DNA of 6,450 nucleotides. It comes from a virus (Duplodnaviria > Heunggongvirae > Uroviricota > Caudoviricetes). The stretch's first letter is position 1; each line of letters opens with the position of its first letter. Below, in pieces: positions 724 through 6,450 of this stretch. The stretch lies in IMG/VR virus record IMGVR_UViG_2698536403_000004, one strand, 5' to 3'. A program made the translations under genes and the position numbers. The notes beneath the pieces are model-generated. The model searched no databases. It saw only the letters and a program-made list of their open reading frames with translations, and was not told the DNA's origin.

Positions 724-908
724 TGCCAGCATCCTTTTTGTATCGGACGTAAACGGGCCAGCATTGAAAGAATGCATATTTTATTTAATAACTCCCGTTC
801 GTGTTTTCTCTTGTTAATGGCATCTTCAGTAAATACAGGGTTACTGATAGTGACACCAATTTCAAAACAACCTTCAGACGTATTAACGTTTGGTAATAAC
901 GTTTCCAT
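720..908 (-). CDS. Small hypothetical protein (62 aa)
   Basis: ATG at 908 with GAGGA 7 nt upstream; track ORF 720..1013 begins at a non-ATG start with no RBS, so the internal ATG is preferred. Product METLLPNVNTSEGCFEIGVT... Confidence 0.45.
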   Translation of the reverse strand: METLLPNVNTSEGCFEIGVTISNPVFTEDAINKRKHERELLNKICILSMLARLRPIQKGCWQ

Positions 909-925
909 TATCGCGTCCTCAACAA

Positions 926-1073
926 TGAATTTTGTGATGCGGTGCCTGGTGCCTCCAGGTGACGTTAACCAGTTAACAATTAACGCCGGATACAGAGAAT
1001 CCACCCATAACACTGTTTTTGGTTTTAACTGTTCCGCGTGCGCTGAGCCGCATTCACCGCATCACAAAATTCA
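926..1073. repeat. Perfect 19-bp inverted repeat pair (926..944 TGAATTTTGTGATGCGGTG and 1055..1073 CACCGCATCACAAAATTCA) bracketing 110 bp that contains further nested palindromes
   Basis: Arms are exact reverse complements when read directly from the sequence; the interior holds CCTGG..CCAGG and GTTAAC..GTTAAC dyads; located just upstream of the minus-strand gene starting at 908. Confidence 0.8.
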
Positions 1074-1475
1074 CTTTAAAAAGGGCGGCAGAGCAGCCAC
1101 GGAGTAAAACTGATACCGCCAAACGTCACCAGAAAATTGATAACAGAGGGCGTTGCAGCGGGGTTGTCACTTAAGCGTATGGTCAACCTGACAACCCGAT
1201 GTCCTCAACGGGGAAGGAATAACCCCGCCATACTTACCGCCGCGCCATTTCGCGGAGTGCCACAACCGGAAGCGCACGGTCGACGAAAATTTAACGACAG
1301 GTTATCTATGAACCAGCTACCTCGCCGTGCGCTTTCGCGTTATGGTCTGACTTTTCATGGAAATATCCTTTCAGTAAACTGTCAGTGCCGGATGCTCACC
1401 CGTGTCCGGCGCACGCACTCCACCTCACCCGTGGAGAACTCCTTAATTACCAACCTTAGCTTCGTTGGTTAGCTA

Positions 1476-1853: not shown

Positions 1854-2090
1854 TCACTCACCTGAGTTTCTTTCCAGCCAGCGACGGGCACCATTTTCGG
1901 TTTTAAACGTTTTGCTTTTGGTATACGTCATTGCGGTGAACGTGCCGTCCTGGTTTGGAAATACGCCGTACACCAGAGATTCGTTGTTGCCAAGATCGAT
2001 AGTATCCATGCTGACCTCATTTCCCCTTAACGCCGGGGTAGCGGAACAAAAACCTGCTGCATAGTTATTAAAGTTGAACCCTGCCGTCAT
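1854..2090 (-). CDS. Small hypothetical protein (78 aa), first gene of the leftward early operon
   Basis: ATG at 2090 with GAGG about 9 nt upstream; an internal Met would give a 51-aa product, so the start is uncertain. No arginine-rich motif, so not obviously an N-type antiterminator. Confidence 0.5.
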   Translation of the reverse strand: MTAGFNFNNYAAGFCSATPALRGNEVSMDTIDLGNNESLVYGVFPNQDGTFTAMTYTKSKTFKTENGARRWLERNSGE

Positions 2091-2195
2091 GTTCTTACGC
2101 CTCGGGCTGGCTACTTAACCCCTGACCACTGCCTGGTAACTCGAAGTATTGCCCTGCATTCTGTGGGGCGGGGTGGGTTGGTATGAAAAGAAGGA

Positions 2196-2232
2196 TACCC
2201 ATAGGTATTTAAAAAGTAAATACCCATGGGTA
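2196..2232. promoter_or_regulatory. Candidate oL/pL: 16-bp-arm palindrome TACCCATAGGTATTTA-aaaag-TAAATACCCATGGGTA (15/16 symmetric) overlapping a possible leftward promoter
   Basis: Palindrome read directly; on the minus strand TTTACT, a 17-nt spacer and TATCCT fit a -35/-10 pair; the arms contain the same TGGGTATT/TAGGTATT motif seen at oR. Confidence 0.45.
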
Positions 2233-2274
2233 ACTTTTTGCGGTGTCTTAACTGGTGACTAGTTGTTTGGTGAG

Positions 2275-2694
2275 CTATGATGCGTTTTGTGCTTTCTTTT
2301 TACGGATTTCTTCGTAGATCATATTGTAATACTGTTTTTTCTCTTCAAGAGTTTTTAATAAGTTATCCGCTTCACTTTCTGGCAGTTCGTCTAAGAGATC
2401 TAAAAAAATACGTTGTCGTGGCGTTAGAACCCTTGTTTCATAACTGGAGGCTGTGTTCGTTGATGATGAAACGATACCATCCATCCATCCCCGGGGTAAC
2501 CCAAAGGACTCTTCGATAATCTCCACCATATCATCAGCGATCCGTTTTTTTCCCTTTTTCCCCTCTGGGTACAACATTCTTGATACATAAGAAGGCTCGC
2601 GCCCGATCTTTCTGGCCACGTTAACCGCTTTACCATCGCATTTCTCATCACGAATTTTGATGAGTTGCTGTCGTCTAAATTCATATTTGTCCAT
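2275..2694 (-). CDS. Prophage repressor, short HTH type (139 aa; CI/RacR-like role), no C-terminal peptidase domain
   Basis: Divergent from a Cro-like gene across an operator-rich spacer; HTH-like segment GKAVNVARKIGREPSYVSRMLY; length too short for an S24 peptidase domain. No SD upstream of the ATG and a TATTAT hexamer 5-10 nt upstream suggest a leaderless mRNA. Confidence 0.7.
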   Translation of the reverse strand: MDKYEFRRQQLIKIRDEKCDGKAVNVARKIGREPSYVSRMLYPEGKKGKKRIADDMVEIIEESFGLPRGWMDGIVSSSTNTASSYETRVLTPRQRIFLDLLDELPESEADNLLKTLEEKKQYYNMIYEEIRKKKAQNAS

Positions 2695-2722
2695 AGGTAA
2701 ATAATAGATGCGATTACTGCAA

Positions 2723-2770
2723 GGTAAACAACCTGTGGGTATTGACTTTTGTTTACCTGTGGGTATTCTT
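2723..2770. promoter_or_regulatory. Candidate oR/pR: two exact 13-bp direct repeats ACCTGTGGGTATT (2731..2743, 2755..2767) plus an 8-bp inverted repeat GGTAAACA/TGTTTACC (2723..2730, 2750..2757), overlapping -35 TTGACT (2742..2747) and -10 TATTCT (2764..2769)
   Basis: Repeats and hexamers read directly; 16-bp spacer; AAGGAG RBS at 2783..2788 precedes the ATG at 2795 of the Cro-like gene. Confidence 0.55.
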
Positions 2771-2794: not shown

Positions 2795-3076
2795 ATGGAA
2801 GAATTAAGAATATTTCTCAATTCTCTTTCGTCAGATGAACAGCGTATGTTTGCATGCGAGTGTGGTACCAGCATCGGTTATCTAAGAAAGGCATTGAGTA
2901 AAGGTCAAGTGTTAGGGGCATCGTTATGTGTCCTTATTGAGCGAGCCAGTAATGGTGAAGTTACACGTCAGCAACTAAGGCCTTTTGATTGGATGAATAT
3001 TTGGCCCGAGCTGGAAGATACCAAAACGTTAACACAACCACTTTCTAGGAGCTTGATTCATGAAAATCAAGCATGA
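2795..3076 (+). CDS. ydaS: Cro-like HTH regulator of the YdaS type (93 aa)
   Basis: AAGGAG 6 nt upstream of ATG; divergent from the repressor; protein pattern ...CGTSIGYLRKALSKGQ...IERASNGEVTRQQLRPFDW resembles the YdaS/Cro-like family as I remember it; not verified by search. Confidence 0.55.
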   Translation: MEELRIFLNSLSSDEQRMFACECGTSIGYLRKALSKGQVLGASLCVLIERASNGEVTRQQLRPFDWMNIWPELEDTKTLTQPLSRSLIHENQA

Positions 3077-3485
3077 ACACATCCGCATGGCGATGAATGC
3101 CTGGGCGCGTCCTGATGGCGAAAAAGTTCCAGCAGCTGGAATAACCCAGGCTTATTTTGAGTTGGGTATAACGTTTCCTGAACTGTATGACGACAGCCAT
3201 CCGGAAGCCCTGGCTCGCAATACACAGAAAATTTTCCGCTGGGTAGAGAAAGACACCCCTGATGCTGTTGAAAAAATTCAGGCGTTGTTACCAGCGATCG
3301 AAAAGGCAATGCCACCTTTGCTGGTGGCCCGAATGCGCAGCCACAGTTCAGCCTATTTTCGGGAGCTGGTGGAGACGCGGGAACGACTGGTGAGAGACGC
3401 TGATGATTTTGTCGCAGTGGCGATTGCCGGTTTCAATCAGATGAACCGTGGTGGCCCTGCAGGAAATGCCGTGGTGATGCACTAA
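3060..3485 (+). CDS. ydaT: YdaT-like protein (141 aa), in the cII-equivalent position
   Basis: AGGAG 8 nt upstream of ATG at 3060; overlaps the preceding gene by 17 nt; N-terminus MKIKHEHI matches my recollection of YdaT family proteins; follows the Cro-like gene as in Rac-type prophages. Confidence 0.5.
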   Translation: MKIKHEHIRMAMNAWARPDGEKVPAAGITQAYFELGITFPELYDDSHPEALARNTQKIFRWVEKDTPDAVEKIQALLPAIEKAMPPLLVARMRSHSSAYFRELVETRERLVRDADDFVAVAIAGFNQMNRGGPAGNAVVMH

Positions 3486-3719: not shown

Positions 3720-4115
3720 TTATGGCATCGGGAGGCCGTTTTTCTCCCGATATCGCTCGATCTCTGCCTGAATTGCTGCAACAGCACACATGGAGTCGTA
3801 CTGGATCAGTCTGAGATTTTCAATCGTGAATTTGTCTTCCTCCATCAGGTTGAGCATACGAAAGTATCGAAAGACGTAAACTTCTGGGCCGCTGACACCA
3901 TACCCCTTTGCCTTCGATATGGTTTGGTGGAGCTCCCATTCTTTCAATGCGAGGGTGAGAGCCATTTCTCTTATTTTTGCTCTGGCTTCAGCAGCCCGGC
4001 GTTGCGCTTCAATGGTTCGTTCCGATTTGCGTTGCCAGGCACCATTAACCAGCGAAACCACGCCAGCAACACACGCACTCAACACAACGCTACTTGTGAT
4101 AGTTGCAAAATCCAT
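3720..4115 (-). CDS. Membrane-anchored protein (131 aa): N-terminal TM helix followed by a basic, helical cytoplasmic domain; moron-like, function unknown
   Basis: ATG at 4115 with GAGGAGG 6 nt upstream; TATAAT (complement of 4155..4160) upstream on the minus strand; product MDFATITSSVVLSACVAGVVSLVNGAWQRKSERTIEAQRRAAEARAK...; positive residues after the TM place the C-domain in the cytoplasm. Confidence 0.65.
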   Translation of the reverse strand: MDFATITSSVVLSACVAGVVSLVNGAWQRKSERTIEAQRRAAEARAKIREMALTLALKEWELHQTISKAKGYGVSGPEVYVFRYFRMLNLMEEDKFTIENLRLIQYDSMCAVAAIQAEIERYREKNGLPMP

Positions 4116-6245: not shown

Positions 6246-6450
6246 GTAAGCGTGCAGCAAGAACCGTATTGACGGGGATGTGTTATTCAGTCGGCAGTGC
6301 TACGCGCCAGGGGAGCAGTTCGCCGACCCGGCGTTACGGTCGTCACGAACGTAGGTCCATAACCGCCCGGTCTTCGTTTTCTTATTGCCTGGCAACAGCA
6401 CCGGGACAGGCGTGTCATCAGCATGGAGCTTACCGTCAGTCAGCACATAG
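6246..6450 (-). mobile_element. IS66-family insertion sequence remnant: terminal GTAAGCG end at 6246 and an internally deleted transposase; continues past the window
   Basis: Minus-strand translation gives ...HADDTPVPVLLPGNKKTKTGRLWTYVRDDRNAGS, matching the middle of IS66-type transposases as I remember them, then jumps in another frame to a C-terminal-like tail ...ELLPWRVALPTE-stop; the plus strand carries GTAAGCGTGCAGCAAGAACCGTATTGACGG at 6246, consistent with the 5'-GTAA terminal repeat of this family. Confidence 0.55.
6283..6449 (-). pseudogene. IS66-family transposase fragment with a large internal deletion and frameshift (junction near 6315..6327)
   Basis: N-terminal/middle homology ends after RDDRNAGS (about 6324); the C-terminal tail is read in a different frame (6286..6327) and ends at the stop 6283..6285. 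Confidence 0.5.

Follow-up and report, generated by a model that had tools for sequence, protein, structure and literature searches.

The repeats found between positions 2196 and 2770 of the 6,450-nucleotide DNA stretch analyzed here (the window) are probably the operators of a bistable switch of the lambda type, which controls the dicBF operon in a Qin-like lambdoid prophage of E. coli. The repeated unit is a 12- to 14-bp palindrome, (T)TACC-YRYR-GGTA(A), that occurs in five copies, three at oR and two at oL. Because these five copies of one palindromic site are placed as in the switch of phage lambda, the layout is an ordinary one. The initial annotation of this DNA had considered it unusual; its geometry is fixed and conserved in many related prophages, and the operator layout confirms the lambda paradigm rather than challenging it. 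The feature is new to the searchable literature, in which a search for the TACC-N4-GGTA operator, for motif notations, and for phage mEp043 returned nothing relevant, and it is of the classical lambdoid operator/repressor kind.

When tested against complete E. coli genomes, positions 2090–2800 of the window matched, at 100% identity, a prophage inserted between potC and potB in E. coli CFT073. At least 80% of this interval is carried by 822 of 5426 complete E. coli genomes (approximately 15%). The leftward operon, on the minus strand, contains ydfA, ydfB, and ydfC (1476–2090), the DicF sRNA (1083–1134, 75 bits), and dicB (719–907). Its first gene, the predicted target of pL/oL control, is ydfA (1854–2090, minus strand), which was identified from the CFT073 annotation and a Pfam match to DUF1391 (E = 5.5e-28). 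To the right of this operon, the minus strand encodes a 139-aa repressor (2275–2694; phrog_5736, "transcriptional regulator," E = 4e-70) and the plus strand a cro-like (YdaS-type) regulator of 93 aa (2795–3076; phrog_35, E = 5e-23), with the Shine-Dalgarno sequence AAGGAG at 2784–2789 and the ATG at 2795. The match of this Cro-like protein to Pfam YdaS_toxin, 25.8 bits, is below the gathering score of 30. A YdaT-like cII analogue follows on the plus strand (3060–3485; Pfam YdaT_toxin, 39.6 bits, cut-off 21), with replication genes downstream of it, and an exact YdaT site, TTGATT-N6-AATCAA as defined before (PMC9986795), is present at the ydaS/ydaT junction (window 3053–3070). This gene order is the layout of Qin (dicA-dicC-dicBF) with another immunity cassette. 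The immunity region is predicted to control DicB and DicF, which are cell-division inhibitors, and knowing the operator would give a direct handle on when the dicBF operon and the prophage are switched on.

Predicted operator sites and promoters at oR and oL

The repressor gene and the cro-like gene are divergent, and the 100-bp gap between them holds three sites together with the hexamers of pR and pRM. In this gap, a repeat finder returned two exact copies of ACCTGTGGGTATT (2731–2743 and 2755–2767), 24 bp apart from start to start, which are the 13-bp direct repeats reported by the initial annotation. Their placement on the -35 and the spacer of a rightward promoter, as given there, is correct only in part: the first copy abuts the -35 hexamer TTGACT with a 2-nt overlap, and the second copy lies over the spacer and also over the -10 hexamer TATTCT. 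The flanking inverted repeat, previously listed with 8-bp arms, is present as well, AGGTAAACAA (2722–2731) pairing with TTGTTTACCT (2749–2758) at 10 of 10 positions. The direct repeats are OR2 and OR1, each a complete (imperfect) palindromic site, and the inverted repeat comes from two half-sites together with their flanks, the right one of OR3 and the left one of OR1.

Predicted OR1 (2754–2765, TACCTGTGGGTA) is a perfect TACC-N4-GGTA site that lies over the spacer of pR and the start of its -10 hexamer. OR2 (2730–2741, AACCTGTGGGTA) abuts the pR -35 and begins with AACC; it has 1 mismatch, and one of its half-sites is degenerate. OR3 (2715–2726, TACTGCAAGGTA), 15 bp from OR2, begins with TACT and is weak, with 1 mismatch and a centre that is not YRYR; it overlaps the pRM -35 and aligns with TACCTGCCGGTA of phage mEp043 and TACCTGTTGGTA of phage CharmingMan. 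The predicted promoter pR (2742–2769, plus strand) consists of the -35 TTGACT (2742–2747), a 16-nt spacer, and the -10 TATTCT (2764–2769), and scored 9/12 in a promoter scan. It is predicted to drive the cro-like gene, with a start expected at approximately 2776, and the positions of its hexamers are common to mEp043 and CharmingMan. On the minus strand, the scan returned pRM (2701–2728), with the -35 TTTACC (2728–2723), which is a half-site of OR3, a 16-nt spacer, and the -10 TATTAT (2706–2701). This -10 ends 6 nt ahead of the repressor ATG and no Shine-Dalgarno sequence precedes the gene in the window; because of this combination, a leaderless repressor mRNA is predicted that, by analogy with known systems, would start at the A of the ATG (2694). 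Relative to this predicted start, the centres of OR2, OR3, and OR1 are at -41.5, -26.5, and -65.5, respectively.

The palindrome described upstream of the leftward operon (2196–2232) was found with arms at 2196–2211 and 2217–2232 that are complementary at 15 of 16 positions; the arms can be extended to 21 nt, with complementarity then at 86%. The same region is also a direct repeat with an offset of 25 bp (ATACCCATAGGTA at 2195, ATACCCATGGGTA at 2220), and each of the copies is internally palindromic. The long palindrome arises because two similar palindromic sites sit 25 bp apart. Both of these sites are perfect: OL1 (2196–2207, TACCCATAGGTA) lies over the spacer and the first two -10 bases of the predicted promoter pL, and OL2 (2221–2232, TACCCATGGGTA) abuts its -35. 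The promoter, equivalent to dicBp (2192–2220, minus strand), has the -35 TTTACT (2220–2215), a 17-nt spacer, and the -10 TATCCT (2197–2192). Its start is predicted at approximately 2185, from where it would drive ydfA-ydfB-ydfC-dicF-dicB. It was not listed by the promoter scan, in which it scores 8/12, under the threshold of 9/12, and was identified by reading the sequence, via the register that it shares with pR and 30 related oL regions. The register is the same at both operators: OL2-TTTACT-17 nt including OL1-TATCCT at oL, and OR2-TTGACT-16 nt-TATTCT at oR. The promoters pR and pL are near-paralogous, and the idea that the repeats are arranged differently at oL and oR does not hold; each operator is a pair of full sites 24–25 bp apart, one abutting the -35 and the other over the spacer and the -10. 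As a separate observation, neither the weak OR3 nor the direct repeat at oL figured in the initial annotation.

On the repressor strand, the same two OL sites are predicted to fold into an RNA hairpin (2186–2232, minus strand; 16 bp with one G-U pair, tail UCCUUCUUUU) that was returned by a terminator scan as a candidate terminator of the repressor transcript. It is possible, although we regard it as rather doubtful, that the palindrome at 2196–2232 acts also, or mainly, at the RNA level, as an intrinsic terminator of the pRM transcript against read-through into the toxic dicBF operon. The scan scores the 16-bp stem with the tail TCCTTCTTTT as terminator-like, the RNA folds with -24.1 kcal/mol (z = -4.3), and the hairpin starts 43 nt past the repressor stop (2275), in a gap up to oL where the scan found no further terminator-like site. 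In mEp043 and CharmingMan a separate canonical GC-rich terminator precedes oL, and the window is without one. However, G-C pairs make up only 5 of the 16 in the stem, the U-tract of the tail is interrupted, two similar palindromic operators give hairpin potential automatically, and several relatives with a short gap have no T-rich tail after OL1. Moreover, termination as the sole function would leave unexplained the identity with the oR core and the family-wide conservation of a site pair on a promoter. An Rfam match of the same segment (2196–2232) to mir-2041 (E = 0.15; 25.6 bits, gathering score 70) was dismissed as a generic hairpin match.

Exact copies of TGGGTATT, the core that the initial annotation had correctly recognized in both operators, inverted at oL, number three in the window and are all within the feature (2736–2743, 2760–2767, and, on the minus strand, 2219–2226). 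When 1 mismatch is allowed, this core has 9 matches against 4.8 expected, a weak enrichment, since 10 of 200 shuffles also reach 9. The palindromic motif TACCNNNNGGTA, likewise at up to 1 mismatch, is much more strongly enriched: it matches the window 7 times where 1.24 matches are expected, a number reached by 0 of 200 shuffles, and 5 of the 7 fall in oR and oL. The search for further copies over the full prophage that had been proposed earlier was run with TACC-N4-GGTA: in 49.9 kb that take in the whole CFT073 prophage, exact sites occur at OL1, OL2, and OR1 only, the block-shuffle mean being 0.76.

Conservation of the sites in related loci

Scanning viral contigs with an alignment of the repressor yielded only copies 99–100% identical to the window, which are for that reason of no use for comparison. 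The comparison set comes from a scan of genome contigs, with one genome per species. This resulted in 42 proteobacterial loci, found in Yersinia, Edwardsiella, Klebsiella, Pantoea, Aeromonas, Neisseria, Burkholderiales, Xanthomonas, Stenotrophomonas, and others. The first 75 or so residues of the repressor are 70–82% identical to the N-termini of many prophage repressors of 220–242 aa of the S24/LexA type, among them the DNA-binding domains of the CI proteins of mEp043 (76%) and CharmingMan (70%). Both phages carry three TACC-N4-GGTA sites at oR and two at oL, with offsets and promoter hexamers that agree with those of the window.

The offsets of the window sites from the repressor ATG are -71, -47, and -32 at oR, and +462 and +487 for the oL pair; the oR offsets typical of the family are approximately -72, -47, and -32. 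Across the comparison set, the OR1-equivalent position (-76 to -70) is occupied in 37 of 42 loci, and in mEp043 and CharmingMan as well; the OR2-equivalent (-51 to -46) is occupied at up to 1 mismatch in 26 of 42, and the OR3-equivalent (-36 to -31) in 33 of 42. A downstream pair of sites 24–26 bp apart, with a -35-like hexamer immediately after the first site, is present in 30 of the 42 loci. Altogether, 157 of the 204 matches in these loci either lie 20–90 bp upstream of the repressor ATG or belong to the downstream pair, the background being 0.22 per kb. Within the sites, TACC and GGTA are conserved at 95–100%, the flanks are symmetric T/A, and the centre is YRYR, with centres and spacers varying between loci. 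Such symmetric conservation of the half-sites would be the signature of a site bound by a dimer.

Promoter elements are conserved along with the sites. The half of OR2 that faces OR3 is usually degenerate (last base T in 54% and A in 35% of 26 scored sites), and the TCAA next to OR2, corresponding to TTGA in the pR -35, is conserved at 85–96%. In the oL pairs, the first site is followed by a -35-like hexamer (TTGACn, TAGACA, or TTTACn) and the final TA of the second site opens the -10. A -10-like hexamer that starts 12–13 nt before the repressor ATG (14 in one locus), leaving a gap of 6–7 nt, was found in 31 of 45 loci against 5.7% of random positions, and a Shine-Dalgarno-like motif before this ATG in 7 of 45. 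A divergent Cro-like ORF homologous to that of the window is present in at least 29 of the 42 related loci.

The sites follow the repressor. Identity of the DNA-binding domain to the 39 loci that have sites is 43–82%, with the SYVSRML sequence of helix-3 kept: every site-bearing locus has SYVSRML with at most 1 substitution, and in the three loci without any site helix-3 reads SYVNRIF, ASISHML, or ATISHLL. The operator sites covary with the predicted recognition helix of the repressor, and the window fits a CI family, defined here, that combines an MDKYE...SYVSRML domain with TACC-N4-GGTA operators.

These comparisons bear directly on the proposal of the initial annotation that a single repressor recognizes TGGGTATT half-sites in different arrangements at the two operators. 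With 8-bp half-sites repeated directly at oR and in inverted orientation at oL, this would be an unusual mixed layout, resembling direct-repeat operators such as those of P2 C. Although the three exact copies do have these orientations and both 13-bp copies at oR are exact, we consider this model very unlikely. The bases that are invariant across 45 loci are TACC and GGTA, flanked by T/A, and both half-sites are equally conserved. The TG of TGGGTATT belongs to the variable YRYR centre, and its TT is contributed by the overlapping promoter hexamer, TTGACT in the case of OR2 and TATTCT in that of OR1. In the relatives, OR1 and OR2 resemble each other in the palindromic core only (in mEp043, AACCTATGGGTA versus TACCTACAGGTA), and oL is built, like oR, from two complete palindromes that form a direct repeat, 25 bp apart. 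Recognition of direct repeats in the manner of P2 C was rejected on the symmetric conservation of the half-sites. What stands of the proposal is the single repressor: judged by comparison, one specificity would fit both oL and oR, through the full palindromic site and not through TGGGTATT half-sites.

That the repeats are a chance similarity or a recombination relic with no regulatory role, as the marginal enrichment of TGGGTATT and the position of the region at a mosaic junction might suggest, is extremely improbable given the shuffling result for TACC-N4-GGTA, the retention of the site positions over at least 40 diverged loci despite variable spacers, and the covariation with the recognition helix.

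The predicted switch and its closest known systems

By analogy with lambda, CP-933P, and DicA, we infer that the repressor binds these sites as a dimer and cooperatively, and that it activates its own promoter. A dimer of the 139-aa protein would contact the 12- to 14-bp palindrome (T)TACC-YRYR-GGTA(A) through its HTH domain. Occupation of OR1, in the pR spacer and -10, and of OR2, abutting the -35, would block pR and keep the cro/ydaT and replication genes silent. From OR2, centred at -41.5 from the start of the leaderless mRNA, the repressor may activate pRM; lambda CI activates pRM from position -41.5. When the level of repressor is high, occupation of the weak OR3 over the pRM -35 would result in negative autoregulation. 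On pL, OL2 and OL1 are bound in the same register in this model, which would switch off the ydfABC-dicF-dicB operon, in which a cell-division inhibitor is encoded. The YdaS-like Cro presumably takes the same sites with reversed preference. The same logic has experimental precedents in PaaR2/YdaS of CP-933P (PMC8630535) and in DicA/dicBp (PMC3441716; bioRxiv 10.1101/2023.04.14.536235).

As in phage lambda, the repressor and cro genes of the window are divergent and oR is tripartite: two strong sites lie over pR at a distance of 24 bp, one site is at approximately -42 of pRM, and the third, placed over pRM, is weak. Downstream of the repressor gene, a paralogous promoter directed leftward has a second operator, and the repressor mRNA, leaderless in lambda, is predicted to be so in the window. 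The differences lie in the parts: the operator of the window is a 12- to 14-bp TACC-YRYR-GGTA whereas the lambda site has 17 bp, OR2 and OR3 are spaced by 15 bp, no more than two oL sites were detected, the repressor is without the S24 autocleavage domain, and YdaS- and YdaT-type proteins stand in for Cro and CII.

Prophage CP-933P of E. coli O157:H7 (PMC8630535, PMC9986795) likewise has a short repressor that lacks S24 and whose mRNA is leaderless (predicted in the window), a YdaS-like Cro, a YdaT-like CII, a YdaT site, and repeats shared by oR and oL. Its operators are 18-bp repeats with the consensus GTTTAGTAA (PMC8630535, PMC9986795), whereas those of the window are not of this type. Because the operator sequences differ, the window prophage and CP-933P are expected to be heteroimmune. 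The window also differs from CP-933P in being without the paaA2-parE2 toxin-antitoxin genes after the repressor. With the operator known, homoimmunity is predicted with mEp043 and CharmingMan, whose CI proteins, together with LexA/S24-type Enterobacterales repressors of approximately 220–240 aa, share with the window the 70–82% identical DNA-binding domain, the operators, their geometry, and the type of Cro. We found no experimental characterization of CI repressors of the mEp043/CharmingMan type in the searchable literature. This widespread repressor/operator pair, absent from the literature searched, could serve as an orthogonal genetic part.

Repressor domains and natural swaps

The 139-aa repressor is composed of an HTH domain (aa 1–75), a disordered linker (aa 76–87), and a DicA-like helical C-terminal domain (aa 86–136). 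The recognition helix SYVSRML is predicted at aa 35–41 and corresponds to helix 34–40 of the AlphaFold model, which has a pLDDT of 86 overall and above 90 over aa 1–70. In this model, the N-terminal domain has five helices and the C-terminal domain is a helix-turn-long helix. A Pfam search with the repressor gave no match, the DNA-binding domain included, and searching the PDB by sequence yielded nothing meaningful. By fold, Foldseek matched the model to HTH domains of Xre/C-proteins (rmsd 2.2–2.6 Å). The best PDB fold match was Rep of Salmonella phage SPC32H (5d50, E = 8e-4), also a non-S24 repressor in which the HTH is N-terminal and the C-terminal part helical (PDB 5d4z, 5d50); it differs in sequence (17–23% identity, TM-score approximately 0.45), and no antirepressor partner was identified for the window repressor.

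In the C-terminal domain, aa 86–136 match positions 81–131 of the NCBIfam DicA model (PRK09706, E = 2.8e-5), although membership of the whole protein fails (23.9 bits against a cut-off of 101), and its LxP..L..L..LPESE.D motif aligns with DicA and with CI of phage Tritos. An S24 domain (PF00717) is absent from the 139-aa repressor and present in relatives that share its DNA-binding domain: CI of the mEp043/CharmingMan type has an S24 peptidase C-terminal domain and is presumably RecA-cleavable, whereas the window repressor has the DicA-like helical domain. Since it has no S24 domain, direct RecA-mediated cleavage of the window repressor is unlikely. For DicA, whose C-terminal domain is homologous, the known antagonist is the antirepressor Rem (bioRxiv 10.1101/2023.04.14.536235). 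No Rem homologue was found at the equivalent position of the CFT073 prophage, and no convincing LexA box in that prophage, including near its Rha-family gene. Taken together, the repressor is by its domain matches a chimera of a CI-family DNA-binding domain and a DicA-like C-terminal domain.

The Qin prophage of K-12 (PMC3441716; bioRxiv 10.1101/2023.04.14.536235) has the same ydfABC-dicF-dicB leftward operon under a pL-like promoter and, in DicA, a short repressor with a homologous C-terminal domain and without a RecA cleavage site. The DNA-binding domain, the cro gene, and the operator sequences of the window are, however, unrelated to those of Qin, where DicA has its own sites of the TTGTTAG..CTAACAA type. 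This repressor/operator cassette is a clean natural example of mosaicism at the level of domains, and its very wide conservation together with the domain-swapped repressor adds modest interest to an otherwise classical switch.

A more speculative proposal, which we advance tentatively and think has perhaps a small chance of being right, joins a dual use of the oL pair with the portability of the cassette. As DNA, the pair would be OL1/OL2 on pL and, as RNA (37 nt), a terminator of the leaderless transcript just upstream of the pL start; the DNA-binding domain, OR3-OR2-OR1, and the YdaS-like Cro would form an ancient portable immunity unit, distributed from Enterobacterales to Xanthomonas and Neisseria. 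If true, one short element would keep the toxic dicBF operon silent and at the same time insulate it, and the mode of induction could be reset by swapping the repressor C-terminal domain alone (S24, DicA-like, or others).

Phage Tritos and the window share the left arm, and the C-terminal domains of their repressors are nearly identical; in Tritos this domain is joined to an Xre-type DNA-binding domain, and GTACT-type repeats occupy both operator positions. DNA homology between Tritos and the window runs up to 2178, approximately the predicted pL start, and is gone across oL; it resumes over the codons of the C-terminal domain (2275 to approximately 2425) and is gone again over the DNA-binding domain. 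The specificity (DNA-binding domain, operators, and cro) and the signal-receiving C-terminal domain are exchanged independently.

Sequence junctions and operator variants around the repressor gene

When the window was compared with Tritos, a heteroimmune phage whose repressor carries another DNA-binding domain, homology stopped at about the predicted transcription start of the leftward promoter pL and skipped the operator oL (2179–2274). It came back solely over the codons for the C-terminal domain of the repressor (2275–2425) and was gone again before the DNA-binding domain. The mosaic junctions between the two genomes are sharp. Several other E. coli genomes encode repressor variants of 135–136 amino acids (proteins P0010–P0018 and P0110), the N-terminus of which corresponds to an overlapping alternative frame (MNLDDSNSSKFV...) with a counterpart in the window (ORF 2424–2684, minus strand). 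These variants are frameshifted copies of the repressor DNA-binding domain, and they are probably inactivated.

Many members of the family, defined by a related DNA-binding domain and TACC-N4-GGTA sites, contain a conserved A-tract before the OL2 site (e.g., GCAAAAAGT; about 2233–2244 in the window). In related loci it falls within the 12 nt that precede OL2, roughly -50 to -58 with respect to the predicted pL. It could act as an UP element or else supply the A-side of a terminator that works in both directions. At oR, the Klebsiella loci L087, L089, and L091–L093 keep the -73 site and lack OR2, with the -33 site also kept in L091–L093; all of them retain either a single site at oL or a pair. 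The OR2-less loci represent a variant oR architecture inside the family. Among these loci, a divergent ORF was called only in L089, and it is not YdaS-like.

Candidate regulators beyond the repressor

An exact copy of the YdaT recognition palindrome TTGATTCATGAAAATCAA was found at 3053–3070, at the junction between the ydaS stop and the ydaT start. The operator OM of the E. coli O157:H7 prophage CP-933P is located at the same position (PMC9986795), and this palindrome suggests a pRE-like control point. In the CFT073 prophage (L128), outside the window, a hypothetical gene encoding 92 amino acids (11416–11694) lies directly upstream of a DUF968 gene, a position equivalent to that occupied by the antirepressor gene rem in Qin. 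The 92-amino acid protein shows no sequence similarity to Rem of Qin; it might be a cognate antirepressor.

Small RNA matches and accessory genes

Within the leftward operon, under predicted oL control, a sub-threshold STnc100-like match (876–1085, minus strand; 37.7 bits versus a gathering score of 47) adjoins the DicF sRNA (1083–1134, minus strand; Rfam, 75 bits). A 131-amino acid ORF (3720–4115, minus strand), which is flanked by the ydaT-like gene and the replication gene and lies in antisense orientation, matched the anti-phage defence protein PD-Lambda-6 over its full length (PADLOC, E = 9e-90). Because the CFT073 annotation differs from the window at this place, the ORF behaves like a moron insertion. 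The right end of the window contains a piece of an IS66-family transposase (6300–6446, minus strand; Pfam DDE_Tnp_IS66, E = 4e-9).
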